A DNA stretch of 60,991 nucleotides, the filler included, from Sanchytrium tribonematis (taxonomy: Eukaryota), in NCBI GenBank assembly GCA_018985235.1. It is 11 parts of 11 records of this genome, joined end to end, with 100 filler letters (N's around TTAATTAATTAA, not from the genome) between each part and the next. Parts side by side here need not be neighbours in the genome. Positions count along the whole stretch, not along the records: positions 50,062 to 55,484 come from JADGIG010000609.1; 10 more parts are not named here. One strand, written 5' to 3'. The notes below the pieces were generated by a model. It saw only the letters and a program-made list of their open reading frames with translations, was not told the DNA's origin and did no database searches. Of this stretch, positions 1,902 through 55,484 are shown one piece after another. A program made the position numbers and the translations under genes. How positions within the stretch are numbered: position 1 is the first letter of the stretch; every line of letters begins with the position of its first letter.

Positions 1902-2100
1902 TTCGAAACTTTTGATGGCCTAGTCATGTTTTTATATCAAGAGGCATATGCTGAGCATCGACTACTAACATCATTACTCTTCTCGTGCATATGTTGGATA
2001 ATTTGATTTACCTCTAAAATATCATGAAATTCGCAATATGGAGCAAGAGATCTCATTGGAAACATTCAAATGAAACGGAGACACTTTCTAAACTCTAAAA

Positions 2101-4414: not shown

Positions 4415-5512
4415 TTATTGACTCTCCAAATAATCTGTTTGATGTGACAAATTCGTGCTTTCTCTATTCCTCTTAAAATACACCATCATTTTATCACTAA
4501 ATGGTTTCGATATCCATCCCAATATCAATGCAGATATCACCAATTTGATAATTGCAGTAATGTTTAAATAAAATAAATTGGATTTTGCTACTAAATTCGA
4601 ATCTAAAGTAGATAGGATAGTCGTAAAGGGAATTTCTGATACCATTGATGTTGCATAAGTTTTAAATGTACTAGATGCATCAGATGCTACTGAAATAGTG
4701 CTAGTTGACTTGATATTGTAGATATTCCGAGTTTGTATTTTTGCAGGAGATGTCGATAAAACAATGGTTTCTCCTTTTGAGATAGAATATTTGGATTCAA
4801 CAGTCGTTGTTTGACTGGGTGATTGAATGGTTAATTGCGTAGATGATGTGTATAATTGATTCATTGTCGATGTACTCGTTGATTCCCTATTCAAGGTAGT
4901 CTGAGCAGTAGTTGCAAATGTAAAACGAGTAGTCATTGGCATCGTTGTAAATATCCGACTAGCTGCCAATGTGCAATTATAATTCAAATCTATTATAGTA
5001 GGCACCCTTTGTTGATTCATGGTACATTTACCAGATGGATTATTGGTTAGTAAATTATTAGTCAAATTACATGATTTTAAATATTGATCACCAATTATGG
5101 CAACATTTGTGAAAGAATTGCCAATTAAAGATATTTTGGTGGGATTAGTAAATGAAATATTGCCAATAAACTGATTATTATCAATGATGAGTGAAGATAA
5201 AGTGAGTGGAATTGATAAACAGCCATAAAAATTATTATTACTAGCTTCTAATTCTTGCAACCAATTGGGGATTTCAATGGGACCATGAAATTGATTATTG
5301 CTAATATAAAGACGCATGATATTACCCGGTGGAATTATTGGCAATTTGCCAGAAAATTGATTATTTCTCACATCCAAGTGGGAAATTGAATTTGGTAAAT
5401 TGGGTAGTGCACCATAAAATTGATTATTTTGCAAGTTTAATTGTCTTATTACAGGTGGTAAATTGGAAATCATGCTGTTGAATTGATTGTTATTCAATGT
5501 GAGCGTATTTAG
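4415..5512 (-). CDS. LRR surface protein, 5' end cut by contig edge
   Basis: LxxxNNQFxG repeats, CNLTNN C-cap, Thr/Ser stalk, C-terminal TM helix; frame open to the contig edge. Confidence 0.9.
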   Translation of the reverse strand, partial: LNTLTLNNNQFNSMISNLPPVIRQLNLQNNQFYGALPNLPNSISHLDVRNNQFSGKLPIIPPGNIMRLYISNNQFHGPIEIPNWLQELEASNNNFYGCLSIPLTLSSLIIDNNQFIGNISFTNPTKISLIGNSFTNVAIIGDQYLKSCNLTNNLLTNNPSGKCTMNQQRVPTIIDLNYNCTLAASRIFTTMPMTTRFTFATTAQTTLNRESTSTSTMNQLYTSSTQLTIQSPSQTTTVESKYSISKGETIVLSTSPAKIQTRNIYNIKSTSTISVASDASSTFKTYATSMVSEIPFTTILSTLDSNLVAKSNLFYLNITAIIKLVISALILGWISKPFSDKMMVYFKRNRESTNLSHQTDYLESQ

Positions 5513-6350: not shown

Positions 6351-8969
6351 TTAATGAAGTCTCATAATTCTCATAAATTCTCTTACCCTTGTATTTAATA
6401 TTAATTTATGTCTGGTATTTAATCTGTCCAAATTCAGACTATTTTGGAATAAAAATAAATTATTCTGCAACTTTTTTTTCATTGATGATACTGAATCAAA
6501 TGGTATAACAAAAGCATTGTGTGCATTTTTGCTTAACCAGTCTGCTCTATCATTTAAATAATTGCCATTATGCCCTTTACACCATATAATTTGTAGTGTA
6601 TTTTGAGAAATAAATTGATTGATATGTGGATATGCTTTATGTAAAGCATGTTTAGATGGATCATTACCTTTTAATAAATAATTAGCAACCTTTACGGATG
6701 CTTGATTATCACAATAAATCCGAAATTTTGATAAATGCAAATGATTGGCCAATTCCAAACATTTATCAATTCCAATACATTCTAATTCAGTGGATGAAGG
6801 AATGTTGTAATTGGATGTATTTTGCAATTTAAATTGATATTCATTAATTATATTAATTGAGTTTGGTGCAGATAAAGTGATTCCAATCCCCATATAATTG
6901 CCATTTAAACTGGCATCCGTCATAAATGTGTATCCATTGTAGTTACAATCAATTGTATTGGAATATTCGTGATCATTTTCATTATTTGAAGCTGGTGGCT
7001 GCATTTGTCGATTTGTGAGTGATGGCAAATAGTCAAAAAATCCCCTATTGTTTTGAAAACATTGCAACTTTTTTTGCACATATGGATGAAATTGTCGACA
7101 AATACGGCAAGTATTACGATCATTGGGTCTGAAATCCCATTTCAATAATTTTGATATTCCCGAATGTGGGTTTTCAATAATATACGGATGAAATTTGAAT
7201 AAACCACTTTCACGTGAAAATGATACGTTAGAATAATCTTTTCCAAATCTCCAACTGTAATGCACTTCTTGTTTCTTTCTCAAATACGTATTTCGTTTGA
7301 TTGTATTTGGATAAACGCAAATAGATTTTAATAAATTTGTGGGAATTGATTTTATAGAATGAAGAAGTGATTTCATATATTTTCGCACTTTTACTTGAAG
7401 ATTCTTGTGCTGTGTATCTTTAAACATGACATTCTGAAAACCGAAATCAATGCACGGCGTCAGGTGAGATGTCAATAATGTACTGCATATTTCTAGGGGT
7501 AAACCCAAACGAAAGACACCCAATTTGCGCAATTCGTGCATTTTACAATTCATTCTCTCTAATTTCTTATTAAACATCATTTTTCTATCTATTCCCGACA
7601 AATTTACCCAATATCCCAAATATCGTTGCGTATTTGAAGTGACTAAAATCCCTCTAATTGATGGCTCTAAACGATTATTTGAAGTAATGATGACACTTTT
7701 CTGAATACTAATACTTAATCCAATCACATTTGCACACTCAATGATTTGGTCTATGGCTTCTTCCAATGCTTCTTTGGAATAACAGAGTAGCGCAATATCA
7801 TCAGCATAGAAAATAGATCTGACTGATTCATTCTGCACCAAGTATAAGTCATTTAAACAGTAGGCAAAGATGGATGGTGACAAACTGGATCCCTGCGGGA
7901 TGCCAGATGTCGTATTTATTTTTTCACTCATTTTTTGTAATAACATCATAGATTGATTTGTGATTCGGACTATGTGCAAGGCTAATCTGACGAGGTATTT
8001 GTTATACTGCTGATACAAATTCAATAAATACGACCTATTGATATTGTCGTAGGCCTTCTTTAGGTCAATCAGACAAATGTATTTTACTCTTTCATGATTC
8101 CGATTTCTACTACTGATGATTCTTGAAAAGTGGGATAATGCATCATGTATGCTGGATTTACTAGCAAATCCAAATTGATTTGCTGGAAATCGGATATGTA
8201 TGGTATGGTAAATGTAGTACTCAAATAATTTTCGAATAGTGTATAAAAGGCTGATACCACGGTGTTGATCCATTCCGGCTGCATTTGTGACTTTAGGAAT
8301 TGGAATGAGTGTAGAATCACCAAATTGGGTTGGTACAAAACCAGTAGAGATCATTAATTGTAAAATATTTTTTAAAATATTTTTTAACATTTCTCCTCCA
8401 AACTTGATACTTTCATTTGGAATATCACGAAATCCATATGATTTATGATTTGGCAGCCATTTGATGCAATTGTTGAATACGACGTCATCGATTGTGTGAG
8501 TGTCCCCAAAAGGCACAATCTTTTCAATGGATTTTTTCAAAGCAATGATTTGTTGAGAATGCGATGCATCTGGAAAACGGTAGAGAAAATCAAGTCCAAA
8601 ATCTCTAATAATTTTTAAAAAATGCTTCATTTCGTGTTTTTTAATATGGCCAATTAATGCTTTAAACATATATTCCCAAATGGTAGTGGGATCATTTTCT
8701 AAATTAGCATTCTTAACAATTAAACTAAACAAATCAAATATGGGTGTATTTACAATGATGCCTGCATCTAAATGTAAAGCAGGAATGGTTTTCTCATAAG
8801 CTTCACTTCTGGGTGGTCGTTTTTGAATTGGTGGTTTTACATGTTTATCAGATCTTTCCCAAATATTTTTAATCCAGTTTTTAAATTCGGATTGACTCAA
8901 ACTCGATATCTGCAGAATAGAAGGAATTTCCATTTTGCTTTTTTGGTTTTCATCAATTATTTTCTTCAT
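6351..8969 (-). mobile_element. Non-LTR-type reverse transcriptase + RNase H ORF, no endonuclease seen
   Basis: RT motifs LIPIPK, HRGISLL, NQFGF, IDLKKAYD, GIPQGSSLSP, FYADD, RYLG; CRIC...H...C knuckle-like motif; RNase HI motifs TDAS, ELE, YCDN, WCKGHNGNYLNDRAD. 872 codons, uninterrupted. Confidence 0.92.
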
Positions 8970-12060: not shown

Positions 12061-12223
12061 TGGGGTGTTTCAAAAAATGTGCACAAAATATATTGAAAAT
12101 TTATTGAGATTTTTAATGGCTATTTTAATCAATTTTGGTTGGTTCATTTTTAGATTATTCTAATTTTCAAACCAATCAAACTCGATATTTTCAAATATAA
12201 ATAGAAGCAACTCCCATTTACCC

Positions 12224-13412
12224 ATGATTGCTTTATTTTCTCATTTGATTGCAGCAGTATCACTTGATTGTCCAAAATTGATTCCATTTGCGCAGCAATT
12301 GAATATGCATATCGTGAATACCACTATTTGGAATCAAATGAATGTGGATTGTTGTTTAGCAGCAGGTGTGACTTGTAACAATAACAAGGTGATTGTAATT
12401 CATTGGGGTGATTTGAGATTAAATGGTACTTTAAATGGCAATTTGACAGGGTTATCAGCACTGTTTACGCTGGATTTGTCCAATAATTTGATAAATGGAT
12501 CCATTTCTACATTATTACCAAACAATTTAAACTCTCTACATGTAGAAGGTAATTATTTAAATGGCACATTGACAAATTGGACATTCCCTCCTAAATTACA
12601 GAGCTTATTTATCAATTCAAATCAATTTACAGGATCTTTACCATCTGGTATCTCTCAATTGACACAATTAAATGCCAATTACAATCAATTTAGTGGGATT
12701 GTACCCTATTTGCCACCGAATTTCAACGGACTCGCTGTGGGGAATAATTTGTTGACTGGGTTTGTGAATATTCCACCATTTTTAAAACAATTATATATGG
12801 GTCGCAATTTATTGACTGGTGAATTGCCAATCATGCCAGACTCATTAAGTGTCATATTTATAGGTGGAAATCAATTTACTGGGACAATTAGTGCCTATAA
12901 ACCTCAATATTTGTGGATCAGTGACAATTTATTTACTGGTTTGAATATTACAGATTATTCTGCAATACTTCCAAATCAATGTTCTATTGCTAATAATCCA
13001 TTATTAAGAGCATCTAATTTGCCACCACCAGGTCTTTGTTTTGAAACAGGTCTTTATTCTCTTCAAACGACTCAAGCATCTGGTATATTATATTCATTTA
13101 GTTGTCACTAGAATATTTTACAAGCAGAATACAAGTGCATTGCATCTAGAAACAACTTTATCTAAAATACTTGTTCAAAATAGTTTGTTTTTAAATAGCA
13201 CAAACACTTTGATTTCATATCATTTTGAGATGCACCAACCACCGTTTGAATGGAATATCTTTATGATGATTCGAATATTCATCAATTTACTGGTTATTTC
13301 ATTCAATATCAGATATCTTCCATTTAAAAGATTGAAAACACAATTGATTAAAGAGATTCCAACTCACAGCAAGGAATTTAGTACTCTACCAAGTGAGAAA
13401 CAATCTAAATGA
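12224..13412 (+). CDS. LRR receptor-like membrane protein; exons 12224-13082 and 13102-13412
   Basis: Signal-like N-terminus, SLDC...DCC cap, LRRs, CSIANNPL cap; a 19-nt intron joins the two track ORFs and adds a TM helix and short tail. Confidence 0.9.
13083..13101 (+). other. 19-nt spliceosomal intron (predicted)
   Basis: GTATATTATATTCATTTAG; removal fuses ORF 12224 in frame to ORF 13041-13412. Confidence 0.8.
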
Positions 13413-16811: not shown

Positions 16812-17375
16812 GGCATCATGATTAGTGATTTTTGTAGATATTTATTTGTATATGAGCATGGTGGTACTTATATTGACTCGGATGTGTCTTTTAAATATCC
16901 TCCAGATCAATGGATCAAACAAAATCCAAATCGACTTATAAATCCCAAATCTATCAAAATGATTGTCGGATTAGAAACTAAATATCCAGGATATGATCAA
17001 CCACAATTTATGAACAAGTATCAGACTGTGCAATGGTCATTTAGTGCCTTTCCAAAGCATCCCGTGTTGTTTCATGCAATTCATGAAATATATCTCAATT
17101 TTACAAAGAATCCCAGTTTATTTAATTCTAGTTCTGCAAATGTGATTGAATTGACTGGACCAGGTGTCATGACGCGTGCTGTTCAACAATATTTGATTGA
17201 AAATGGGGGAGTTATATCTGATTTGCAAGAAGCGCCAATTTTAGTGGGTGATTTGTTTATTGGGGATCCATTAATGTTGAATTGTTATGGATATTGTGAT
17301 TATATGGACTGTAATTCGGAATGTTTACAATTAGAAATGGTGCATCATTATTTTGAAGGGAGTTGGAAGCATTGA
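16812..17375 (+). CDS. GT32 (Och1/Sur1-type DxD) glycosyltransferase, 5' end cut by contig edge
   Basis: DFCRYL...GGTYIDSD, QWSF...HP, TGPG, HHYFEGSWK. Confidence 0.88.
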   Translation, partial: GIMISDFCRYLFVYEHGGTYIDSDVSFKYPPDQWIKQNPNRLINPKSIKMIVGLETKYPGYDQPQFMNKYQTVQWSFSAFPKHPVLFHAIHEIYLNFTKNPSLFNSSSANVIELTGPGVMTRAVQQYLIENGGVISDLQEAPILVGDLFIGDPLMLNCYGYCDYMDCNSECLQLEMVHHYFEGSWKH

Positions 17376-17513
17376 AATAAAAATTGATTTTTCCACCAAT
17401 CAATTTGCACAAATCAACTTGCAGCCAATTTCTCAAATGACAATCTATCCAATCAAGGGAAGCATCACAATATTCAAAGTAAACCAGATCGCATCAAACT
17501 AGTTGGGTATCAA

Positions 17514-18422
17514 ATGGATGATTATTTATTAAAAGACAAACCGGTGAATCGCTTCTCATTTAAACGTCAAAAATACTGGTATTGGATGATGAGACATAAA
17601 TGCCATGTATTTGCCATATTATTTGTTATTTGGTATGCGTGGTTGGCATTGAATACACGATTGAGTGTACCGAATAGAAATTCACGCTCCAATGCCGATA
17701 TTACTGAATTTTCATTTTATCCGCCTCAAAGCGTATTTATGCCATTTCTTGAGAAACCAACAAACCAACAAAAGAAAATAATGGGTCAAATGCCATCTAA
17801 TCATCAATTATCGAAATTTGATGGATTGAATTGTGAGAATTTGATTAAACGACATTATCCCAAATTATACAAAGTTTACATCAATTTCAATGAAGAAATG
17901 AGAAAGGATACATGTCAATATGCTGTAATCTATCATTTTGGAGGCACTTATACAGATACTGACTGGATCAAACAATCTCCAAGTGGATTTATCATTAAGA
18001 AACCTAATCGCATTTTTGCACATAAATCTATTCGTATGGTGATTGGGCTAGAAACCAAATATCCAGGATACGAACAGCCACAATTTTTGGATCCCTACCA
18101 AGTGGCGTCATGGGCATTCAGTGCTTACAGAAAACACAAGTTTCTAAATTATATTTTGATGGATATCATCAATAATGCACCCTATTTTGACTATGACAAT
18201 CATTCTTCACAGAATTCAACTGGTTCTGGTGCCATGACGCGTGCTATGAAGCAATATTTAAAAGATCACGGTGCCACAAATGATGATTTACAACAAGTTC
18301 CAATTCAAGTGGGTGATTTATATATTGGTGATCCACTATTATTTAATTGCTATGGATATTGTGATGACAAGGATTGCAATGATTTATGTCCCGCAAATGA
18401 AGTCGTCCATCATTTCTTTTAA
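17514..18422 (+). CDS. GT32 glycosyltransferase paralogue, type II membrane anchor, C-terminus shortened
   Basis: GGTYTDTD; shares IGLETKYPGY.QPQF and IGDPL..NCYGYCD with the upstream copy; stops at HHFF where the paralogue continues EGSWKH. Confidence 0.8.
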   Translation: MDDYLLKDKPVNRFSFKRQKYWYWMMRHKCHVFAILFVIWYAWLALNTRLSVPNRNSRSNADITEFSFYPPQSVFMPFLEKPTNQQKKIMGQMPSNHQLSKFDGLNCENLIKRHYPKLYKVYINFNEEMRKDTCQYAVIYHFGGTYTDTDWIKQSPSGFIIKKPNRIFAHKSIRMVIGLETKYPGYEQPQFLDPYQVASWAFSAYRKHKFLNYILMDIINNAPYFDYDNHSSQNSTGSGAMTRAMKQYLKDHGATNDDLQQVPIQVGDLYIGDPLLFNCYGYCDDKDCNDLCPANEVVHHFF

Positions 18423-18459
18423 GAAAAAAATAAATATATTTTGAAACACCCTAAGTAAA

Positions 18460-19923
18460 ATGTCCGATCTTCCAAAAAGATCCAGAAATGACATATTTCT
18501 ACAAAAACCAGAAAAGGTTTATCCATCTACTATCACTGAAGAACCCACTAAATCCATTATTATTGCCCAACCCATTGAAAATAACCATAAATTAATCAAA
18601 CGATCAGAAATCCGTAAAAAAGCTGAAGCATTAATAGAAAGAAGTGATTCAATTGGATTATTAGATCTCAATAAATCCACACCTACCTCTCTAAACAGAA
18701 ATAGATCCAAATCATCCTCAAATGTCCAATTAATTACAAATGAAGAAATGAGTCAATTACATGCCAATTTATTAAATGATCTAGTCTATTTTCCATTGAA
18801 TAAGAATTTATTAGGTCAAGGTAGACATGCATCTGTATATTTAGGTACTTTGAAGCAAAATAGATTTATAAATCATAAATTAATTCAAGGTCATGAAATC
18901 CAAGTAGCTGTTAAAATACTAAATAGTGAGCCTGATTCAGCATCGACTGGTTTAATGGAAGCTTATTGCTTAAATCTGTTAAAACATCACAATATTATCC
19001 ATTTATTATCATTTATGGAATTTCAAGATTCTCCTGGCAAGGGCACCCTTCACAAAGAAATTGATTTATCAGAATTCAATCAGATCAACCCACAAGTATT
19101 TATGCATCATTCCCAAGTCACAAATTCAAAAATGAAATTATTTGAAATCCCTGATGAATTTAATATTAATTTTAATCCCTCTCAAAATCGATTATTGGTG
19201 CTAGAATATGCTAAAAATGGATCATTATGGCATCATTGTCAACAGACACCCAGATTAATTAGTAAAAGACAGTTTATTAGATGGTCTAAAGAACTCGCAA
19301 GTGCCTTGATCGCAATGCAAGAACAATCTATTATTCACCACGATATTAAGCCATCCAATGTCTTGCTAAGTGAATTTAATGTGTGTAAATTGAGTGATTT
19401 TGGAAATGCATTAGTCGGGCAAGAGTTTCCATTAGAAATGGCAAGAGGGCGGGGCACGACTGTGTTTCAAGCACCAGAATTATTTACTAAATCAGATAGT
19501 TATACCAATGTAATTGACATGTACTCACTGGGGTGCACGCTGTGGTGTGTGGGGATATTGGGGAAAGAGCCATTTGGTAAAATACAATCAGTTGTTTTAT
19601 TACATCAAATTATTCAACGTGGATTGCTTCAAAGTGAATTAAATTGGCCACCAGAGATATTACATTCTGAATTAATGGATTCTGACTGTCAAGGAGTGTT
19701 TCCTGAAACAATTACAAATTTGGATGCTTCAAAAGGCGTTTATAATCCATTCAATGGGAGAATACTGAGATTTCTAAATGGGGAAGTCGTGCAATGTTGG
19801 ATCTATGAGTTATTAAGAGATTGTATGAGTACTAATAAAATAGAGAGACCGAGTCCAAAAGAATTTCTATATCGGATTAAATTACATGATGGGGGTTTAG
19901 ATACGACTGATTTCTTTTTATAA
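18460..19923 (+). CDS. Ser/Thr protein kinase with insertions
   Basis: LGQGRHASVY, VAVK, HHDIKPSN, DFG, GTTVFQAPE, D-x-YSLG. Confidence 0.9.
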   Translation: MSDLPKRSRNDIFLQKPEKVYPSTITEEPTKSIIIAQPIENNHKLIKRSEIRKKAEALIERSDSIGLLDLNKSTPTSLNRNRSKSSSNVQLITNEEMSQLHANLLNDLVYFPLNKNLLGQGRHASVYLGTLKQNRFINHKLIQGHEIQVAVKILNSEPDSASTGLMEAYCLNLLKHHNIIHLLSFMEFQDSPGKGTLHKEIDLSEFNQINPQVFMHHSQVTNSKMKLFEIPDEFNINFNPSQNRLLVLEYAKNGSLWHHCQQTPRLISKRQFIRWSKELASALIAMQEQSIIHHDIKPSNVLLSEFNVCKLSDFGNALVGQEFPLEMARGRGTTVFQAPELFTKSDSYTNVIDMYSLGCTLWCVGILGKEPFGKIQSVVLLHQIIQRGLLQSELNWPPEILHSELMDSDCQGVFPETITNLDASKGVYNPFNGRILRFLNGEVVQCWIYELLRDCMSTNKIERPSPKEFLYRIKLHDGGLDTTDFFL

Positions 19924-23718: not shown

Positions 23719-24996
23719 ATGTTTTTGACCATTTTAAACGCTCTACAGGTCTCTATAGACTGTGAATCCGTGTATTATCTATCCATGTCACTCACAAACA
23801 ACAATAAAACCATTTCCAGTCCATATCTATCCAATTGCTGCATCAAAAATGTATTTTGCGTCAATAATCGCGTAGATACCATTTTATGGTACAATCTCAA
23901 GTATTCTGGTACCATCAATAGCACTGCATTATCAAAATTGACTCAATTAACCACATTGGATCTTCATGATAATCAAATTAAAGGACCCATCAATAATTTA
24001 CCCAGTTTACTGACAATTATTGATTTAAGCAATAACTTATTTACTGAATCACTCACATTGCCACCACTGACTCAGTATATTTATATCTCCAACAATGATT
24101 TCTCCAAATTGACTCTAAATGCAAAAATATTAGAAATCCACGCATCCAATAACAATTTAAATCAATCCATCTCCATTCCCAATACGTGTAATCAAATTTA
24201 TTTGGACAATAACCAATTGTATGGCTCATTGAATATCCCATCTATTGCTACAGATGTCTCCATTTTCAATAATTTATTAAATTCTTTGATGATTCCCTCT
24301 AATTCCCAATTACAATCCCTCTATGCGTCTCACAACCATCTCAACCAGGTCTTGAATAGTCAATCATTCCCTCCATCCCTCTCAAATGTTGATTTATCCT
24401 ATAATCAATTATCTGGATCCATCACATTAAATTCTGTAAATTCTGTATATTTACAATTTAATCAACTAAGTGGCATTACCATTAATGATACTAGTAATTT
24501 AATGTCTTATTTACCTGATAAATACTGTGATTTAAGCCATAATGTGTTTCAACATTTATATGAGAATATTTGTGAATATAACACACCATTTGAAGTGACA
24601 GTGGATGCGCCAATGACTCAAACACAAAAGAATCAAGCAATTAGTCCCTATACTAGTCTCACAGGACAGGCTATCCAAACTAAGCAGAATCAACCAAATG
24701 CAGCTAAGTCTGATTCAAACAATGTTTCAATTGATGCAAAATCAACCCATGTGGAAATGCAAGCATCTACACTCAGTGCAATTAGTTCAAGCAGTGATTT
24801 TAATAGTTTATATGTAGTAACATCACAAACAACAGCCACTACCACTACTAGTTTATCTAAAGCTGTAGCAACAACTACTAGCATTTCTTCACAGGTAACA
24901 TCGCATGGGGATCCATTGGCAACCAATACACCTTCTAGTGCTACAAACACAAACATTCAAGTTGTCATGTGCTTTATTTTAATAAATATGATGTGA
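23719..24996 (+). CDS. LRR surface protein with Ser/Thr stalk, possibly GPI-anchored
   Basis: SIDC...NCC cap, LRRs, CDLSHN cap, S/T-rich stalk, hydrophobic extreme C-terminus. Confidence 0.9.
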   Translation: MFLTILNALQVSIDCESVYYLSMSLTNNNKTISSPYLSNCCIKNVFCVNNRVDTILWYNLKYSGTINSTALSKLTQLTTLDLHDNQIKGPINNLPSLLTIIDLSNNLFTESLTLPPLTQYIYISNNDFSKLTLNAKILEIHASNNNLNQSISIPNTCNQIYLDNNQLYGSLNIPSIATDVSIFNNLLNSLMIPSNSQLQSLYASHNHLNQVLNSQSFPPSLSNVDLSYNQLSGSITLNSVNSVYLQFNQLSGITINDTSNLMSYLPDKYCDLSHNVFQHLYENICEYNTPFEVTVDAPMTQTQKNQAISPYTSLTGQAIQTKQNQPNAAKSDSNNVSIDAKSTHVEMQASTLSAISSSSDFNSLYVVTSQTTATTTTSLSKAVATTTSISSQVTSHGDPLATNTPSSATNTNIQVVMCFILINMM

Positions 24997-33455: not shown

Positions 33456-35638
33456 AAATATTCCATATACCTGGAGTAGTAGAGGTCCGACAGCAGATGG
33501 TGATTATGGTGTAAATGTGTATGCACCAGGTTCCGCAATCACGTCTATCCCAAAATATAATTTATTTCCCTCTCAATTAATGAATGGGACCTCCATGAGC
33601 TCTCCTAATATGGCTGGTTGTACAGCATTGTTAAAATGTGCCTTTCCTAAATTAAATAGCTATAGATTGCTGAATTGTATTCAAGGCACCCCAGTGGAAC
33701 AAGATCCTCATTTGCAACCATTTATTCAGGTAGTTAAGACATACGAATATTTGCAGAAAACTGAATCAATTAATTTGGATATACTGTTTCAAATCAAAAC
33801 CTCAAAAGGCAGAGGCATTTATGTGCGAAACGTAAATGAACTTGAAAATTTTTCGGATACCATTAGCATTAGATGCATATTTTTAAATGAATATGATCCA
33901 GAGTTTTGTGAAGTTAATGAGAAGAAACTAAATTTTAATGTTAATTTGAAACTAGTCACTAATTGTAGTTTCTTGAATATACCAAAATATTTGCAGTTAA
34001 ATAACATGGGGCGTTCGTTTGGTATCACTATCAATAAGGATTTAGTCCCTACAGGATTAAATACTGGTGATATCTATGCATATGATGGAGACATCTTGCT
34101 GTTTAAGATTCCAGTAACTGTAATCAATCCAATTATTGGTCTTCCAGATATGACTTTGGAAAAATCTCTATTCCAAGGAGGCACTGTGAAAAGATGGTTT
34201 ATTCAAGTACCGGAGGCAAACTCTATGCATTTAAAATTTAGCTTCAATGAAGGTTTAAATAGTCGATACTATGTTCATTGCCAACAACTTGTGAAAGATT
34301 TCAGACATTCTAAATTTGAAGAGCTTTTTGTAATGGATTGTCAATTCAATACATTGAAGAAGATGAATGTTCTACCAAATACAATTATAGAAGTATTATA
34401 TTTTAATGTAGATTTGTGTCGCTCAATTTTGGAGCTCAATTGGATCGCATGAAATTCAATTGCAATTAGAGTTCCATGGTGTTTTTTCGGAACCAATATG
34501 CTCTACCAACCAAGATTTGAATTTGCTTTTAAGAGCACCGTTGAAGAACGAACATGTCACATTGAGCAGTAATTTGACTCACGAACGACTCATTCTTCAA
34601 CCCACCAAGACTTTAATTAATCCAATGAATGATAGAGATCTGGTGTATCAGGCAGACAATGAGCTTTTATTGACTTACAGTCAGAAATTCGATAAGGAAT
34701 CTACTATTATTGTCAAGACAGCTTTGGATAATTTTCTGTATGACAGTGATTTTACACTTTTGTTGCTATTTTTTAAAGACAAAAAGCTAATTCGAACTCA
34801 AGATGTTTACCCAAAATCCTTCAAATTCCAAGGAGAATTGACAATCAAAGTGCAAATTAGACACAATGATGTTTCCAAATTAAAAGAAGTTAATACGGCT
34901 CTAAACATTGATGTGGAAATTGAAAAACAGAAGATTGAATGGCATGAGGCTTTACAATCCAACAAATCTAAATTTTTAATTAAAAAAGGAAAGGATTTAC
35001 GTTTGTATCAGACCCTGTCATGGAATAAACAAGGTACATTTGTCGGTGTTGTAGAGGCAAATGATTTAAAAATTCCGATTCTTGTGCTCTTGAAATCTAA
35101 ACAAGAAGATAAAAAAGAGACTAAACAAGATACAAAATTGATGGGCTTGGTAGATCAATTGGTCAAGACAGACCATACCTTGAAAATTGATTCTTATTAC
35201 TATGATTCACAAATGATTTTAAATGACAAGGCTGACAAATTTACTAAAAAAGTTGATTTTAAAGAATTACTACTCTCTGTTAGTGGTGTTGACAATGAGT
35301 ATTCAATTTACCAAAATGTGATTGTGAAAGCTTATTGTAAGATGCTTCTGAAAGATCTTAATCAAGAAAAATTTGAGCAAATTTGTCAATTGCAAAAGAA
35401 AAAAGATTGGGTACCGGAAAATGAGAAAGATTTATTGCAATTGATAAAAATGCTGGTTGACAAGCAGCTTTATGGAACTGCAATTAAACATATCGTAGCT
35501 TTTAACAAACAGAAATTGAGTGCTGAATTGTATGCCGAATGGATAAAAATTCTTCAACTTTTAAAATGGGATGAATGGGCAAAGCGTGTGGAACAATTAC
35601 TTGTGCTAGATTGCACTATTGACGCATGCTTATTTTAA
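33456..35638 (+). CDS. TPP2: Tripeptidyl-peptidase II, 5' end cut by contig edge; intron at 34393-34411
   Basis: YTWSSRGPTADG, QLMNGTSMSSPN (catalytic Ser), GRGIYVR; spliced junction gives IIE|ICVAQFWSSIG...LEFHG. Confidence 0.93.
34393..34411 (+). other. 19-nt spliceosomal intron (predicted)
   Basis: GTATTATATTTTAATGTAG; removal restores the conserved TPP2 E.C.AQFWSS.G segment and joins two track ORFs. Confidence 0.9.
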
Positions 35639-38897: not shown

Positions 38898-39122
38898 NNN
38901 NNNNNNNNNNNNNNNNNNNNNNNNNNNNNNNNNNNNNNNNNTTAATTAATTAANNNNNNNNNNNNNNNNNNNNNNNNNNNNNNNNNNNNNNNNNNNNACA
39001 TGTGCCTGGGTGTATTTATAGCAAGTAATTTGTATTCCAATTATTGTTTAAATAAAGATTTTTCATTCTTAGGCGGTCAAAATTTTGCTTTGTGATGGGT
39101 TGTTTAATTTGAAACAATTTCA

Positions 39123-40280
39123 ATGGACGAAAAATTATCTTTTAAATACCACTTACTTACATTTACAGCATTAATATTTACGGTGTCAATTTACTCGTTT
39201 TTAATGATTCCAGAAACCTTCTTGCCGCCAAACCTTACTCAAATTTCTCAATTTGAAAAACTCAATTCGAAAATGATATCGAAAGAAACTTCTTTTCAAA
39301 AACCCAAAATAGTCGCCGGCCCCGAACCAGCACCTGCTCTTGCCGAATCAGAGGATGATGTAATATGGGGGCCTAGAAAATTGAAAGGCAAATGTGATCC
39401 TGTATTGTGTCGAGCATTAGCTGGAAATTGCGACCCTGAGGAAGGCTGCGTTTCGGATAGTGGATGGGCTTTAAAGACTGATCAATTTAATGTGCCTCGA
39501 CCACTTTCGAAATATTCTTGGGAAAATGACAATATAACAAGCCGTGCTCTGGAGAAATTACCAGCCAATTCAATTCCATTTATTTTTCACAGAACCTGGA
39601 AAAACACCAAGATACCCAAAGATTATAATCCTTTTTTGAAAGACTGTCTCGATACACATCCAACCTGGAAAAACGTGCTTTGGACAGACAAGGATAATTA
39701 TGAATTAGTTAGAAGAGAATTTCCACAATATTTATACATATATCAAAGGTTTCAAAGGAACATTGAACGTGCGGATTTTATTAGGTATCTTTACATGTAT
39801 CATTATGGAGGACTCTATGTCGATTTGGATGTAGATTGCTTAAAGAATTCAGAGGAATTAATCAAAGACAAAATCATCGTTTTGGGAGCAATGGGTGAAG
39901 ATTTTCCTCACAACGTGCCTAATGCTATTATGTATTCTCGTAAGAAGCATCCATTTTGGCTTTTTGTCGTAAATTTAATCACAACTAAAATGCATCATAA
40001 TATGGGTGTTGAATCCACTACAGGCCCTGTAATTCTAAAAGATGCGTATGAGCTTTTTAGAAAAATCGAGGGTATCGGTGATGATATATATGTAACCAAG
40101 CCTGGATTATTGTATGGAGTTGATTGGAGAAAGCGACCAACAGATTATCCGGAATGCGGAAGTCGATCGCCCACTAGTTTAGAAGTCGATAATTGCAGAG
40201 CTCACTTTCCAGATGTTTATCTGATTACTTATTGGTATCATAGCTGGGAAGATAAATTTACCGTTAGTCATCCAGAATAA
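39123..40280 (+). CDS. GT32 mannosyltransferase (Sur1/Csg1-like MIPC synthase type)
   Basis: Signal anchor, IPFIFHRTWK, LWTD, IERADFIRY, GGLYVDLDV, HPFW, TGP, YWYHSW. Confidence 0.9.
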   Translation: MDEKLSFKYHLLTFTALIFTVSIYSFLMIPETFLPPNLTQISQFEKLNSKMISKETSFQKPKIVAGPEPAPALAESEDDVIWGPRKLKGKCDPVLCRALAGNCDPEEGCVSDSGWALKTDQFNVPRPLSKYSWENDNITSRALEKLPANSIPFIFHRTWKNTKIPKDYNPFLKDCLDTHPTWKNVLWTDKDNYELVRREFPQYLYIYQRFQRNIERADFIRYLYMYHYGGLYVDLDVDCLKNSEELIKDKIIVLGAMGEDFPHNVPNAIMYSRKKHPFWLFVVNLITTKMHHNMGVESTTGPVILKDAYELFRKIEGIGDDIYVTKPGLLYGVDWRKRPTDYPECGSRSPTSLEVDNCRAHFPDVYLITYWYHSWEDKFTVSHPE

Positions 40281-47589: not shown

Positions 47590-47936
47590 ATATCATTGTA
47601 TTTTGAATGTGAAATGTAGTTTTCGACTGCAATAGTTGTTCAATTTGTTACTTTTTCATAATATATCTAAAAGTTGCAACCTCAAGGTTGTACCACTTCA
47701 AGTTTCTGTGCAACATTTCCAACATGTAAGAAAACGATCAGAACAAGATTTGCAACAACCAAAATACAAGCAAAATATGTTATTGAAGATACGCCATGAA
47801 CAACCGTCTAATGTAACTTGTACTTAATCGGAATTCAAATCGTTTCATAAAAAGCAAAGATCACTGGGTAATTTAGGAGTCAAAGGAGTAGAAAGGAGCG
47901 TACAAAAAGCAGACAGTCGCCCCCAAAGTGATTCAA

Positions 47937-48683
47937 ATGAAATGTTCGGCTACATTCCTTGCAGCACTATCTGTTCTCCCCAGAATTGGACAGCATGTAC
48001 CATCGTCCCCTCCTGTACCACACACTTTACCAGTTTGTGCTGTTTCTCGTGAATCTGTGTGCAGAATTCCAGACCCTATAGACCATGCTGAAGTTTGTCA
48101 ATTTATTGGAACTTCCTCATCTTCATATGCACTTCCTACTGTTCCATTGAATACACTGCAAAACGGTGGTTTCTATAAATTGTCTCTAGAAATTTTAAAA
48201 GCCATTGAAATACTGCATCAAGCTCACAGACCGCATGGAAATGTAAGAGCTGAAAATGTGATGCGATGCGGTGATCAATTCAAATTGACCGAACCTCGAG
48301 AAGGTATTTTAGAATATTCTGGTGAAAAAAACATTGATACTATCCAAATTCTTTATTTTCCTCATGATAGCCATAGAAATCGCAGGTATGAAACCTCATA
48401 TTTGGATATTGTTGCGTATGCTAAAATGCTGTATCATGTTTTATACGGAGAAAAATATAACTGTGCCCTGTATGAATTGCATTACGATGAGGATGATTTG
48501 CGTTTTTCTAAAATATTCCAGTATAATGAAAGAGTTTCACAGATTTTGACTAGTGAAGAATTTGAATCGTTAAAATTATTGTGGAAAAAGACAATTCCAA
48601 AATACATTGGAGTATATCCTACTGTGGAGGGTGTATTGAATGGACCATGGTTTACCTCAAAAGCAAGTCAATTAAGCGATTGA
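47937..48683 (+). CDS. Putative secreted pseudokinase
   Basis: Hydrophobic N-terminus; AIEILH..HRPHGNVRAENVM..G..FKLTEP (HRD to HGN, DFG to EPR); D..AY.KMLY. Confidence 0.7.
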   Translation: MKCSATFLAALSVLPRIGQHVPSSPPVPHTLPVCAVSRESVCRIPDPIDHAEVCQFIGTSSSSYALPTVPLNTLQNGGFYKLSLEILKAIEILHQAHRPHGNVRAENVMRCGDQFKLTEPREGILEYSGEKNIDTIQILYFPHDSHRNRRYETSYLDIVAYAKMLYHVLYGEKYNCALYELHYDEDDLRFSKIFQYNERVSQILTSEEFESLKLLWKKTIPKYIGVYPTVEGVLNGPWFTSKASQLSD

Positions 48684-49187: not shown

Positions 49188-49257
49188 ATAAAATCAATTC
49201 AACGGGGAAATCATTTGATGTCATTTATGATGTCATATTACAAATAAAACATCTCAC

Positions 49258-49961
49258 ATGTTTTATCTCTTTTGCATTACATTCTCACTCGTCAATCCAT
49301 CCACAGAATACACGAAATCCATTTACAAATATCCAAATGACGCATTGCAATCACTTTATCAATATTACGAGTCTGATCCATCTAATTACTTAATCCGTCT
49401 ATTAAATACACAATATACCCATTCCAATATCATCTGGTATACCGAGCAATGTGAAAACATTTATAATTTATATTTTACAACAAAATCACACATATCTCAT
49501 GAATTATTACATCAAATCACATTAAATAGTCTTCAAGGTATCCAATATCTACACAATCATGGATTATACCATTTAAATATACATTTACATGCCATTGTGA
49601 AATGTGGCAATATTTACAAATTAACTGATTTTCAATATTTATCAAAACAATTGACAATTCATGATATATCATATTCTATGATATACGTACCAGTGCAGTG
49701 GATGATGAGTGATGATATTACGACCACTCATTGGGATTTAGTGAGTTGGTCAAAAATGATTTATCATTTATTGTATTTTAAAGAATTTGATAAATTAATT
49801 GAAATATGCTATGATTCATCTCATTTACACTATTTTGCATATGAACCAGTCAAGAAAGTATTAACTAGACAACAATTTAAGAGGTTATTGGGTGTCTTTG
49901 AATTTGCCATGAATTGCGAATTGGAAAAGAATCAAAATGCAAATGAATTATTGAAATTGGA
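49258..49961 (+). CDS. Putative secreted pseudokinase paralogue, 3' end cut by contig edge
   Basis: MFYLFCITFSL; GIQYLHNHGLYHLNIHLHAIVKCGNIYKLTDFQ; D..SW.KMIYHLLY. Confidence 0.7.
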
Positions 49962-50061: not shown

Positions 50062-50517
50062 AAATCTGTAAGTACTAAAATTGACTATATTTTAAAAATT
50101 TGCCTATACTATGGGGAATCCAAAATACTAATCTATAGTTCTTTCACTAGCATATTGCAGGACATTCATGAAAGTTTGAAGGCTGTCACCATAACAAGTG
50201 GGTTTTCTTCTTCAGTGGATCAATTCAAAAAAGGGTCATCCATTAGGGTGTTATTACTAAATACAAAGTTGGAAAATTCTGGTTTATCATTACAGTGCGC
50301 AAATCATATTATTTTTGTGGAACCATTTTCAGATAATAAAATTCATCAGCAAGCATTGGGAAGGATAAGCAGAATTGGCCAAACGAGAGAAACGTTTATT
50401 CATTATGTTTATATGAAAGGCACCTTGGAAGAAGCAATCATGAATAATAAGCAAGTCACAAGTCACGTTAGTTTGAGCCATGGCTTGAATATTGCAGATG
50501 TGATAAACTTTCTTTAA
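50062..50517 (+). CDS. SNF2-family helicase C-terminal domain (Rad5/SHPRH-like), 5' end cut by contig edge
   Basis: STKID, KILIYSSF, VLLL...SGLSLQCANHIIFVEP, QALGRISRIGQTRET. Confidence 0.88.
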   Translation, partial: KSVSTKIDYILKICLYYGESKILIYSSFTSILQDIHESLKAVTITSGFSSSVDQFKKGSSIRVLLLNTKLENSGLSLQCANHIIFVEPFSDNKIHQQALGRISRIGQTRETFIHYVYMKGTLEEAIMNNKQVTSHVSLSHGLNIADVINFL

Positions 50518-51407
50518 ATTAGAGCCAAAAAGGACACATTATTGTTTAATCGTTTGTCGATTGGCATCAGCAACATGTTAGATCGAAATATGTATAAAAT
50601 TTGACTATAAATATCTTCGTCCAACGGCAAGTCAACATCCTTTGTCTCAGTGGGATAAAATAGAAATTTAATGCTTCTTTGAGAATTCACATTAGAAAAT
50701 ATATTAATAATTTGAATTGCAGTACATTTTGAAGCAGTGGCCATGCATACAGTGAAGTCTCCTCGCTGTGATGCACTATGTAAATATTCAGCCATACAAT
50801 CAGATAGTGAATAATTCAAACTATCTGTAAGCGAAACTTTCCATTTCCAAAGCATAGAAAAAGAGTTGTGGACGTGGCCTAAATCCAATTTACATTGAGG
50901 ACAAGATGTAATATTTCCTGGAAGCCAAATATCGAAATCACTTAATAGTAGCTTATTTCTATCCATCAAATCCTCATTGGATAAAGCTGGATTTTTCCAG
51001 GGTGTCTTATGGCAGAAACATTCTGACAAACTTTCATAAAACCCGTCCCATGGTTTTTTGCTCGTAAGTAAATGAGACGTGTCTGCTAATAAATAATCAC
51101 AAAATTTGCATTTAATAGACGCGACGTTGTTGACTCTTTGCCGCTTAATATATTTTGGCTTTGCTAAAACAGGCTCATAGAATACAATAAGTCGTAAACC
51201 ACCTTTCACACCAGTTAATTTACATGAATCTAAATTAAGTCTTTTTGTCTCTATAATTCTGTCATCAATTATAATAGAGTCTTTGAGAACTTTTAAATTG
51301 CATGCTTCTACAAAGTCAAGTTCTAAATGGTCTTTGAATTCTTCCAAGAACATTCCTTTTGTTACAACCCACTTTCTCCACTTACAACTTAATACTTGTA
51401 ATGCCAT
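50514..51407 (-). CDS. HECT-like E2-binding protein (UBE3D/Ipa1-like)
   Basis: IKCKFC, P...E.....CH, CPQC...LG, L.KW pattern. Confidence 0.6.
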   Translation of the reverse strand: MALQVLSCKWRKWVVTKGMFLEEFKDHLELDFVEACNLKVLKDSIIIDDRIIETKRLNLDSCKLTGVKGGLRLIVFYEPVLAKPKYIKRQRVNNVASIKCKFCDYLLADTSHLLTSKKPWDGFYESLSECFCHKTPWKNPALSNEDLMDRNKLLLSDFDIWLPGNITSCPQCKLDLGHVHNSFSMLWKWKVSLTDSLNYSLSDCMAEYLHSASQRGDFTVCMATASKCTAIQIINIFSNVNSQRSIKFLFYPTETKDVDLPLDEDIYSQILYIFRSNMLLMPIDKRLNNNVSFLALI

Positions 51408-51508
51408 GTGTTACATCAAAAAACCAACAATTGATTTAATTTTCGAGAATATATACCAATTATTTATTAGGGTATTTAGAAAAACTTAATAATTATTCAT
51501 ACTGGCCC

Positions 51509-51937
51509 CTAAATCAATGTAATGTACCTCAGTCTTCGAACAAGGTCTAAATCTCTCTTCATTAATGTGACTCGCTTGGAATGTATTGCGCAAAGCATGC
51601 TGTCTTCAAATAAAGTAACCAAATATGCCTCTGCCGATTCTTGCAGTGCCATCAAAGCACCAGCTTGCCATCTATATTCTTGTGCTTGAAAAACATGATC
51701 CCTCTGCAAACTCCCTACTATTTGTCTACAAAGCCTTCCAAAGGGAGCTTTGCGTATCAATAAATTTGTAGACTTTTGATATTTCCGAATTTCTTGAAGT
51801 GCACGGGTCCCAGGCTTAAAACGATGCTGTTTCTTAGGAACGGTTTTACCAACTTGTTTAACGCTTTTTCTTGGAGATACACGCTTCGTAGACATGAATT
51901 TCATTCTATCTTGGAGTGAAGGTACCTTGCCCGACAT
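51509..51937 (-). CDS. Centromeric histone H3 variant (CENP-A/Cse4)
   Basis: H3 fold ([20 protein letters not shown]) with divergent N-tail, extended loop 1, RWQ, and no Gln at the canonical PFQR position. Confidence 0.88.
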
Positions 51938-52237
51938 CGAAATTTAGAATGTTTCAGAGGACTAAAAACCCCAAATTTTTTGCAATCAATTGAAGTCGAG
52001 TTCGAAAGTTATTAACGAGTTGCTACTAGCAATTTTTATAAAAGTAAAATCAAAATCCCGCTACCCAGTTGCGAGACCACAGGAACTTGGAGATAGCCGG
52101 ATTAAATAATTTAAGTTATATAAATTTTATCATCAGGATGGATCCAGCAGGCACACACAATTACAGATTGAATCTTCAGCCTTGAATTAAATCCTTCTAT
52201 AAAATTATAAAACGTTACGTCCATAGTTTCAAAGATA

Positions 52238-55200
52238 ATGAATTTTGGATACTTTGGTGATTCTAGTTTAACAAATTTGTATATAAATTATACTGCTATC
52301 CAAAATGGCTATGCCTTAATATATGGTTCTCAAGCTACTATCAAAGATGGCGGATATGGTTATTCGGATTATATAAAAATTTCTACCCCTAAAAATATTG
52401 CGGCTCAAATTTCTCCATCTGGTTCGGTAACATGGCTGGCGGTATGTGAAGATGGATACTACCCCGAGAATGGATTGTTTCCGGCTTCAAGTTGTAAAAA
52501 ATGTCCATTGCATTCAAGTTCTTCCTTATTAATGAATTATTGTGCTTGTTTGGACGGTTACTACAGCTTACTAAATACCAATAGTACTACTTATTATTCT
52601 GATCTACAATTAAATTACAATAATCCCGAAAATATCTGTTCTCCCTGCTTACATGGAACTTCTTGTGAAAGTGGGTACGGACGTCTAAATGCGCAAACAT
52701 TATTATATAAAGATTCAAATCTAATATGCGAAGAGGGTTGCGAAAGCGGAAAATGTGTTGAGCCTTACACTGGAGAGTTTTGTTCGGATTGCACTTCGGG
52801 TCATTATCAGTACAATAGAACTTGCTTAAGTTGTAAAAGCAGTGCATTTTATGTTGTCCTATTATTTCTGGCACTTTTGATGTTCCCTGTGGGATTTATT
52901 GTCTTGCAAAAAGGATGGAAAAAATTTCTTTCAATTAGCATATCATATTTTTTCATTCAAGAGTTGGCTTTGATAATTTTCACCGATGTATTTTGGTCTA
53001 CCACGCAATCTCATTGGAGGTATCTCGGACTAGCTCTTTTCGATGTTTCCTGGTCAAATTTGGGATGTTATTCTGGAAATGATTTAGTGAGAGGATTTGC
53101 TATTGTTATCTTGCCTATAGTTCTATTTGCTGAATTACTCTGGAAATTTTTGTTCTTCGGAATAAGTCGAGTTGCAAAATGGAAATCAGAATTACCCATT
53201 ACATCTTTTCTGCTTTTCACGCAGCCTCAAAGTGCTTTAATTTTAATGGAAGTGCTTTATTTTCCGATTCTTATTGGTCTTGCTAGAATTGGCTCATGTA
53301 AATCAGACAAAACTGCTGACTCTCCATTTTTCGTTTGGAATTGCAAAAATTTTAGTGTCGCTTTCCCGTTATTTCTCGCATTCGGTCTAATTATCCCATT
53401 AATTCATATTTTGACGCGGGTGTATTTAAAGAAACGAAAAAATTTGAGATTGCAAGAGAAAACCAATGAAAAGAGAAGCCAGCAGCAAACAGTAGCTTGG
53501 CCAAGAAGCACTACAGCTGTTAATATAGGTACTGGACTGCAATACAAAACAAGTGCCAAAAATCCATATATATTATTTTTCCAGTATTTAAAACGCTTTT
53601 TTATTGCAGCGTTTTGGTTCGGTGGCTCTAGTTGGGGCTCCTTCACGCAAATATGGACAGTAGCAATGGTTGAATCATTCGCAGCCTTAATTTTAAGTGT
53701 TGGTATGATAAAAACATATCGTGGTAAAATTGGAGGAATAGTGTTATTTTTTCAGGGCTCGGCTTTGGTTCTAACTGCTTCATTTTACCTAACTGCTGCA
53801 ATTCAACCTCCAATTTATCAGCCATTTGACCACAACAATCCAATTGACCAAAATATATACGACATGACTCCATTTTTGGTTGGGCTGATTATAGTTGCAC
53901 TTTTAATGCCAATATTTGAAATAACTTATTACTTTTTAAACAGAGCAGATCCTGAACTGTACAGAAAGCTGCCCAAGAAAAACAAAAAATCTGCTAGTGT
54001 TCAAATCTTAGGTGTACGGAGTTCACAATTAAATAAAGATGTACAAAAAGTTGTTCAAGTCAAGTATGACGAAGAAGGAAACAAAAAGAAAGTAGTATAT
54101 TTGACTAAAAAGGCACTAGATACACTCCATAGAGGTTCTATAAAAGAATCAGCATCTGAAGAGGAATTATTAGAAAAAGATGAAAATCCAGAAGCCCCAA
54201 AATTAAAAGGAAATATAATTGTTGAAATACCACAAACTGAAGTAGAAAAAAGGGACACATTAATGAGAATGGTTCAAAAAATGGAGAATGTGAGAGATGA
54301 GGCTGTACTATCACCTGAGTCTGATTCAAGTAAAGAGAGTATTCAACCTCCCAAGCATCATGAACCCACCGTGAAGAGATCAGTCCTAGATGAAGATGAG
54401 ATTAATGGTGTAAAAATGTCGATGACAAGGGTTGAGTTTGAAGATGAGACTAGAGAAAGACCTCCAGTAGGAAAAAGTTTGCCAAAATTTGAGTCATCGG
54501 ACGAAGATTCTCAAATTAAAAAAAGTTTTCCTCTGCTACAGAATTCTATGAAGCGAAATTTGTCAAAAAATATTAGCAAAAGTACCTCCAATAATAATTC
54601 GTTTCAAAACTCCAGGGAAATTACAGTATTGCAGTCGAAACCAAACAACCCCGAGGAGGACGAATTAATGAAGGAGGCATTAATGGATGCTTCTAATGCT
54701 TACAAAAATTCGCAACCAAAAGTAGTGAGGGAGAGTATCGTAAGTGAAGTCAGTTTTGCAACAGATAAAAGGACCGATATGACGAAAGCAAATTCAAAAA
54801 GTGATCTCAATCAAGAATTTTCGAGGACGAATAGTAATGCTGGTAAGACGGACGTATCTGAAAAAAAATCCTTTTTTACGAGGATGAGAGCAAATTCTTC
54901 CGAAACTAAAAAGAAGTCACCTAAAACTATTGAAGGCCCAACAAATTTTAAACACACTGGCCATCTTGATGCAAGCCATATCATGATAACAACACTCCCT
55001 GGTGAATACAAAGATATTATTGAAAAAGCAGGTGTTTCTGAAGAAGATTTGAAAGATCCAGAAACATTTAAATTTATTATTGAATTTATAGTCAAAAAGT
55101 CAGCTGGCACAGTCAAAAAACCTAAAGTTAAATCTTCAGAATCTGGTAAAAAACAGCTATATATTGAGCCAGAAATTGCTAGTCAATTTGATGACGATGA

Positions 55201-55484
55201 AGTAAAACCATCAGACACAAAGCCAAGGTTCTCAGTTACTGAGTCAACATTACCAAGAGACAATTTTTCGAACATTGTGAAATCAGAAGAGAAGGTTGAC
55301 AATGTTTCAAAGTCTGCTCAATCTATTCAATCTGTTCCATCCAACATCAATCATTCATCAGACAACGTTGTAAGTACCTCATCTATACCACCACCACCGC
55401 CACCTATGCTTCAAAGTAGCACTCCAAACTTGAATATACCCGCACCACCTCCACCGATGCAGACACAGTCGAGTTTCTCTTCTG
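52238..55484 (+). CDS. Cys-rich multi-pass membrane protein with WASP-type CRIB/GBD and polyproline, 3' end cut by contig edge
   Basis: EGF/laminin-like Cys repeats, about 9 hydrophobic segments, long disordered linker, IEGPTNFKHTGH, AGVSEEDLKDPETFKFIIEFI, PPPPPP. Confidence 0.85.

Follow-up and report, generated by a model that had tools for sequence, protein, structure and literature searches.

The window analysed here is a stretch of 60,991 nucleotides (nt) from Sanchytrium tribonematis (assembly GCA_018985235.1), and one open reading frame (ORF) in it, at 52238-55484, encodes in order a Cys-rich domain, a multi-pass membrane domain, a linker, a WASP-type GTPase-binding domain (GBD) and polyproline. 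A receptor-like multi-pass protein and a CRIB/autoinhibitory domain of WASP type, with polyproline and WH2 motifs, are truly fused in this one gene. We read its product as an integral-membrane activator of Arp2/3 gated by Rho GTPases (Cdc42/Rac), that is, a receptor-like protein with a WASP tail in place of WH1, and put the probability of this reading at roughly 0.6. A membrane-integral WASP had been proposed in a first-pass annotation of the sequence; the fusion, the WASP-type GBD and WH2 were upheld, and the central and acidic (C-A) end that Arp2/3 activation needs was not seen.

Identification of the fusion protein and its relatives

The frame is continuous, as the annotation had held, with 1082 amino acids (aa) and no stop, and it has no end because its contig (50062-55484) stops there and the frame runs into N. 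The motifs quoted from it were all located: CPLHS at aa 89, CLDGYY at aa 104 and YTGEFCSDC at aa 177 in the Cys-rich part, and IEGPTNFKHTGH at aa 898, LPGEYKDII at aa 920 and two polyproline runs at aa 1051 and aa 1070 in the tail. None of 20,000 shuffles kept the frame open across the 945-nt stretch from the ninth transmembrane helix (TM9) to the basic region, in which the remaining plus-strand frames hold 27 and 35 stops.

The same architecture, which the annotation had suggested looking for elsewhere, was found in three relatives. The window protein is here called P0001, the fusion relatives P0002, P0003 and P0010, and the tail-only relatives P0011, P0012 and P0020. P0002 and P0003 were the two relatives recovered by a word search (6,995 candidates), their ENA contigs reaching 50,949 and 22,343 nt; P0010, 52% identical over 711 aa, came from a length-free profile search of 1.84 billion representatives, which at an E value of 0.001 or better gave 182 matches, 150 of them listed. 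Manual sorting of the 150 yielded three full fusions, 38 proteins with the Cys/membrane half only and 109 with the GBD side only. Among the listed matches P0010-P0157, a CRIB occurred together with at least two membrane peaks in P0010 only, and no further full fusion was found among the matches listed. Word-based searches among shorter proteins found nothing related (0/3,490 and 0/2,290 candidates), and related DNA was confirmed in none of 598 stretches from JGI metagenomes, 22 viral and 46 GTDB stretches; a motif scan for related DNA returned 37 loci, none with a tblastn E value below 0.1.

Identity to the relatives was 51/50% in the Cys-rich domain, 60/54% in the membrane domain, 65/45% after TM9, 25/10% in the linker (aa 701-885) and 68/76% in the GBD, and both halves of the fusion appear to be under selection. 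The charged linker of about 330 aa described earlier is thus a free linker over aa 701-885 only, the first 125 aa after TM9 being conserved. The variable length of the linker argues against rigid allostery. The basic patch KKKSPK is present at aa 891, as had been noted, but is confined to P0001; the conserved basic element, KKxFFx[K/R], lies about 15 residues upstream of it. The juxtamembrane region (aa 568-692) has no Pfam match, and its amphipathic helix (about aa 667-684) is predicted in one model; this helix, which might pack on the GBD, does not match the C-domain pattern. A degenerate WH1 after TM9 was rejected, a PF00568 scan of the pieces from TM9 to CRIB giving no match.

The WASP-type switch

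The likeness to the WASP/N-WASP GBD noticed in the annotation proved significant, with E 8.3e-7 for the N-WASP GBD (8s5t) versus only 0.12 for that of PAK. Pfam PBD exceeds its cut-off of 21.3 bits on the isolated window piece (22.4), P0002 (23.2) and P0010 (24.9), and the family profile matches full-length N-WASP at the GBD and WH2 (E 7.8e-11). No WH1 (PF00568) was detected on P0001-P0005 or P0010 by scans that do detect it in P0014, P0021 and P0082. A tree was built from 90 CRIB-WAID segments (71 columns; P0020 and other matches without CRIB were left out), and in it the four fusions, P0011 and P0012 form one clade (99/97), which is sister (99/90) to P0082, a canonical WASP of the layout WH1-GBD-PRD-WH2-WH2-C-A. 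As judged from alignment and tree, the GBD of the fusions is of WASP origin, and the simplest history would be a WASP copy in which WH1 was replaced by a membrane protein. The WH1-bearing sister row P0082 points to a replacement independent of the amoebozoan and apusozoan WAWH.

The Cys-rich and membrane domains

Eight clear hydropathy peaks and a ninth, weaker one were counted, in agreement with the nine or so hydrophobic segments first reported; the ninth (about aa 444-463) falls under the hydropathy threshold, yet both low-confidence models make it a helix. If nine helices and an outer N-terminus are assumed, near-membrane Lys and Arg number 25 on the predicted inside versus 6 outside, which would place the tail in the cytosol. 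Thirteen of the 15 Cys of the Cys-rich domain are common to P0001-P0003, and the sequon at aa 193 is retained in all four fusion proteins. Based on the charge bias, the conserved Cys and the sequon, we favour an N-out topology with the Cys-rich part outside or luminal. Three of the four fusion proteins begin M[N/S]FGY; the region that follows (aa 12-67) is without Pfam match, and its beta-strands appear in one low-confidence model and are absent from the other.

Pfam gives the membrane half no name, an NCBIfam scan gave nothing, and the Cys-rich domain's own Pfam matches are all sub-threshold. Atlas neighbours of the membrane half are protist ephrin-like/DUF7630/TRP-like clusters (scores 0.83-0.91). 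When 16 of the 38 family matches were scanned, DUF7630 was found in 11, Ephrin_rec_like in five and a weak PF06011 match (E 3e-4) in one, and most of the scanned proteins bear long ectodomains of leucine-rich repeat (LRR), Sushi, Ig or propeller type. A family hidden Markov model, built from the 24 of 38 matches with at least six transmembrane peaks and partly circular in that these were recruited by the fusion query, covers aa 131-561 at 104 bits, with 99.7% by hhalign over 322 columns. The late helices alone score 11.0, 9.5, 8.7 and 2.0 bits against it in the four fusions, and 5.7 or less in 200 shuffles. On this profile evidence the membrane half is a member of a widespread ephrin-like/DUF7630 multi-pass family, and CRIB occurs in none of the 38 family matches listed.

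WH2 motifs and the C-terminal end

A WH2-C-A end had been predicted past the break. WH2 was seen, starting about five codons past the break: a contig of run X1 extends 541 nt beyond 55484, and its first 30 letters, read in frame, give the first WH2 helix with the motif DMLSSI, which recurs in P0010. Tandem WH2 is present in all three complete relatives (P0002, P0003 and P0010), Pfam WH2 being above its cut-off in P0003, the tail of which aligns to the tandem WH2 of N-WASP. The tail of the complete relatives consists of KKxFF, CRIB, autoinhibitory helices, KKxLYIEP, short polyprolines and two WH2. C-A was seen in no fusion, nor did the other contigs of the window yield a WH2 or C motif that could supply it. 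P0012, a tail-only protein of the same clade, has the full WH2-C-A end, with a C-pattern helix followed by an acidic-Trp segment. P0011, P0012 and P0020, which share the clade's GBD and post-GBD motif, may be soluble paralogues resembling WAWH, or else represent downstream exons of additional fusions.

In the fusions the frame ends 5, 8 and 13 residues past the last WH2 valine, and in two tail-only relatives 6 and 12 residues past it. AT-rich GT-AG introns of 19 nt, of the form GTAT...TAG, were noted in the window at 42867-42849 (-), 34393-34411 (+), 13083-13101 (+) and 175-157 (-). Four of six frame-joining GT-AG candidates in a stricter scan of the window were 19 nt, in a scan that was tuned after two examples had been seen (an earlier loose scan was too noisy) and whose two LRR-gene candidates are not validated. 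Homology supports the ACAT intron well: excising a 19-nt GT-AG piece from the ACAT gene makes the fragments abut at SOAT1 residues 355/356, and a second candidate joins the TPPII fragments roughly. The in-frame translations of the two are VLYFNVD and VFTIHIE; the P0010 tail begins VLFINVE and the P0003 tail VFYIHLG, which resemble them. A 19-nt intron fits three of the five truncated tails versus 36 of 274 background valines (13%; P 0.018). We consider it probable that a spliced C-A end exists. Introns of 19 nt are unusually short for a fungus-like organism, and a literature search on such short introns gave nothing on point. In human WAS, c.1338 is what we take to be the end of WH2. A splice donor of that gene is placed at c.1338 (PMC9304939), and A domains often lie on an exon of their own and are overlooked by gene callers (PMC3298513); here and below, statements taken from articles, PMC12716839 aside, hold for the available parts of their text.

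Proposed mechanism

The Cys-rich part would face the outside or a lumen and the WASP tail the cytosol. An intron of about 19 nt would follow the second WH2, with C and A encoded by the next exon. As in WASP, C would be held against the autoinhibitory helices for as long as the CRIB is empty, and occupancy of the CRIB by a GTP-bound Rho GTPase would free WH2-WH2-C-A to load actin and Arp2/3; in WASP, biochemistry has C binding the autoinhibitory domain and a GTPase on the CRIB freeing the verprolin-central-acidic (VCA) end (PMC3298513). The membrane domain would replace recruitment through WH1 and WIP or adaptors, fixing and clustering the nucleator where the receptor is sorted or engaged, and the long linker would serve as a tether. 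Tentatively, and with more doubt than confidence, the protein might be a one-chain receptor-to-Arp2/3 device, in which the Cys-rich multi-pass domain senses a ligand or a host surface that it touches and, with no adaptor, the WASP tail is thereby clustered or directly unlocked; such unlocking would perhaps pass through the conserved helix at aa 667-684.

Evidence against and alternative explanations

Several observations weigh against a GTPase-gated Arp2/3 activator built on a receptor. The absent signal peptide is the main oddity for the receptor part: the annotation had seen none, none of the four fusion proteins has a hydrophobic N-terminus, and the loose intron scan found no 19-nt candidate upstream of the ORF, so that 200 residues would have to cross the membrane without such a peptide. 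Both AlphaFold models are of poor quality (pLDDT 35 and 38), and Foldseek found no fold match for either at E 0.001. The CRIB is divergent, PBD falling under its cut-off on whole P0001 (18.5 bits) and on P0003; the last N-WASP GBD helix is replaced by the post-GBD motif, so autoinhibition may differ; and the bootstrap of the CRIB-WAID tree, given its 71 columns only, is not fully settled. All three complete fusion ORFs, as called, are without a C or A domain, and the ORF of P0012 is without a membrane domain. The intron after the second WH2 is one that we infer from the ends of the proteins and not from DNA: restricted to the three fusions, the fit reaches a P of only 0.047, P0002 would call for 21 nt with a TAG stop at their end, P0011 has no fit, and the test passes the coding tail of P0012, which is a false positive. 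Positions 53422 and 54751-54763 are not bridged by the X1 contigs listed (8/15, then 5/5 records).

These points bear on four other explanations. The protein may truly end after the second WH2, in which case it would be a membrane-bound, GTPase-binding recruiter of actin monomers, or a tether or elongator of filaments, and not an Arp2/3 activator. It predicts what is seen in all three complete fusion ORFs, a stop 5-13 residues past the final WH2 valine with neither an acidic stretch nor Trp in between, and fish S-WASP is likewise without C-A (PMC3298513). We think it unlikely, however: what follows LKSV is not conserved and looks like translated introns of the genome, the strong conservation of the autoinhibitory helices, which few other parts equal, is hard to explain without a C helix as partner, and the clade also includes P0012, in which C and A are present. 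Concerning the membrane half, it could be a TRP-like (Pkd2/Flc, PF06011) stretch or calcium channel, with a tail that couples channel activity to local actin assembly. PF06011 is carried by 12-25% of the members of atlas clusters near the membrane region (scores 0.85-0.89) and is matched weakly by the one scanned family protein mentioned above, and fission yeast Pkd2 combines an outer N-terminal domain and an inner tail with stretch-activated calcium permeability (PMC9727806). Such a channel is nevertheless improbable in our estimation, since no fusion protein matches PF06011, an ML-like domain and fold support are both lacking, and atlas scores below 0.9 are leads only.

Fixed to a membrane, the tail might also function chiefly as a sink or landmark for active Rac/Cdc42, or it might serve trafficking at an internal membrane (endosome, Golgi or vacuole), with a Cys-rich part that is structural and senses nothing. 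This would agree with the missing signal peptide, with an N-terminal domain that is short beside those of family members with LRR, Sushi, Ig or propeller arrays, and with the restriction of active Rac by Dictyostelium WASP (cited in PMC8847673), but every relative retains its polyprolines and tandem WH2, and we give the idea little credence; it departs from the Arp2/3-activator reading mainly in location and emphasis. Finally, the fusion could be an assembly chimera or a read-through of two neighbouring genes. The assembly is of short contigs, and the listed X1 contigs leave the two small places given above unbridged, one of them in the linker, the continuity of which the annotation had wished to see confirmed. 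X1 contigs otherwise tile the fusion gene, with five differences inside the ORF (two silent, three missense) and no stop among them; X1 may be the source sample, in which case it gives no independent support for the fusion. The same fusion does occur in three relatives at about 52% identity, with in-frame linkers of differing length, and the open linker frame was not reproduced by shuffling. A chimera is therefore barely credible, and is in practice refuted by the independent relatives.

Comparison with known systems

Plant class I formins, Listeria ActA and Tir of enteropathogenic Escherichia coli (EPEC) fix actin assembly to a membrane by a transmembrane segment of their own. They have one or two membrane segments and work as a formin, as a VCA mimic or by recruiting an adaptor. 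To our knowledge, none of them combines a multi-pass receptor with the CRIB-autoinhibitory switch of WASP. WASP and N-WASP (8s5t, 6uhc, 1ej5; PMC3298513) share with the fusion a basic motif, CRIB, autoinhibitory helices, polyproline and tandem WH2, which follow one another as they do in N-WASP. They differ from it in that the fusion has no WH1, its place being taken by the Cys-rich multi-pass domain and a cytosolic region of 300 aa, has short polyprolines, a replaced last GBD helix and no C-A seen, and has Ile for the Tyr of the N-WASP IYDF motif. WAWH resembles the fusion in being a WASP tail without WH1 (C-A being unseen in the fusion), and the IMD-fused WAML in having its N-terminal module swapped for one that acts on membranes; in the available text of PMC3298513 both are known from amoebae, Apusozoa and one lizard, and no membrane-spanning form is described. 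Cys-rich multi-pass protist proteins with Ephrin_rec_like (PF07699) or DUF7630 (PF24633) and a PF06011-like membrane domain align with the Cys module and membrane domain (aa 131-561), whereas the ectodomains of those scanned are mostly long and CRIB is absent from all 38 listed. Oomycete GPCR-bigrams also join a multi-pass receptor-like domain to a cytosolic effector, but have seven transmembrane helices and catalytic partners (PIPK, INPP, AC, PDE and TKL), no actin regulator being mentioned in the available part of PMC6033456.

No transmembrane WASP was found in the literature searched, which leaves subscription papers mostly outside and in which supplementary sequence files may hold cases. 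The word "transmembrane" occurs 0 times in the main text of PMC3298513 and in PMC8847673 and PMC5461030, and three times in PMC10330494, never about a WASP protein, in each case for the part available; terms for WASP, WH2, CRIB and actin all occur 0 times in PMC12716839. The fusion is best filed as a multi-pass variant of the WASP family, pending a C-A exon; WH1, on which membership of the WASP subfamily is tested, is absent from it.

Features and gene neighbourhood

The features of the fusion gene are listed in Table 1.

Table 1. Coordinates of the fusion gene and of its parts in the window
Feature	Position	Strand	Basis or remark
Single ORF, 1082 codons, open at contig end	52238..55484	+	same layout in P0002, P0003, P0010
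N-terminal region aa 12-67, predicted beta-strands, no family match	52271..52438	+	one low-confidence model
Cys-rich domain aa 70-199, ephrin-receptor-like/GCC repeats and DUF7630-like juxtamembrane module	52445..52834	+	predicted extracellular or luminal
Multi-pass membrane domain aa 204-567, predicted N-out/C-in	52847..53938	+	hydropathy, charge bias, family HMM
Conserved juxtamembrane region aa 568-692, amphipathic helix about aa 667-684	53939..54313	+	65/45% identity; kept in P0010
Variable charged linker aa 693-875, differing size among relatives, frame kept	54314..54862	+	alignment of relatives
KKxFFx[K/R] basic-aromatic motif, candidate membrane-binding	54863..54883	+	present in all four fusions
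CRIB motif aa 898-910	54929..54967	+	GBD match to N-WASP, Pfam PBD
WASP autoinhibitory helices aa 919-956	54992..55105	+	alignment to 8s5t, 6uhc, 2k42, 1ej5; 68/76% identity in relatives
Clade-specific post-GBD motif, basic stretch then KKxLYIEP	55106..55174	+	77/77% identity; common to P0011, P0012
Two polyproline runs	55388..55456	+	sequence
Artificial contig joint	55485..55584	.	N44, stop linker, N44

The window comprises 11 separate contigs of 5.4-5.5 kb, mostly in falling size order, joined by N44, a 12-nt linker with stops in six frames and N44, and gene order across the joints is meaningless. Its genes are densely packed, with few introns and 31-36% GC. The source is placed only as a fungus-like opisthokont; EF1-alpha, on the contig next to that of the fusion gene, has its best match in yeast (872 bits versus 846 for mammals). 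Over 50062-55484, run X1 gives paired contigs of like depth with single-base differences, which fits a heterozygous or mixed-strain sample. A histone H3 variant (51509-51934, -) stands head to head with the fusion gene, about 300 nt apart; it has a divergent N-terminal tail and an altered loop region and is CENH3-like by eye, and a different H3 gene is the probable source of the loose ends at 51618-51658. EukProt contains four window proteins, one of them from contig 50062-55484, and the fusion protein was not retrieved there; the fusion gene looks to have been overlooked so far, although neighbouring genes are in that database.

Elsewhere in the window, an apparently intact frame of 872 aa with RVT_1 and RNase H (6354-8969, -) is probably a retroelement. 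LRR proteins are encoded at 144-1919 (-), 4418-5512 (-, without Pfam match), 12164-13108 (+) and 23719-24993 (+), and the hydrophobic N-termini of most suggest an expanded secreted or surface LRR family. At least two DXD-type glycosyltransferases (PF04488) lie on different contigs (16812-19920 and 39108-40277, +), and two adjoining degenerate kinase-like frames (47892-48683 and 49231-49961, +) include one that scores under the Pkinase cut-off and one without match.

Significance

WASP-family proteins are described in surveys, as far as their available text goes, as soluble and as brought to membranes by WIP, adaptors, lipids and GTPases. A central question is how WASP comes to be localised and clustered by receptors, and the fusion hard-wires a WASP switch to a receptor-like domain. 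Kept in four diverged lineages, it offers a minimal system for asking whether tethering or ligand-driven clustering suffices for Arp2/3 control. The large orphan family of protist multi-pass proteins, in turn, gains a cytosolic output that can be assayed, namely actin polymerisation. WASP and Arp2/3 drive the pseudopods of chytrid zoospores (PMC5461030), and the fusion is therefore a candidate for a part in crawling or host entry, a link that we infer. Were the fusion the one-chain receptor-to-Arp2/3 device tentatively suggested above, the WASP family would have in it a first native member of multi-pass type, serving actin-driven protrusion in an early-branching fungus-like cell, and the orphan ephrin-like/DUF7630 receptors a first lead to their function.

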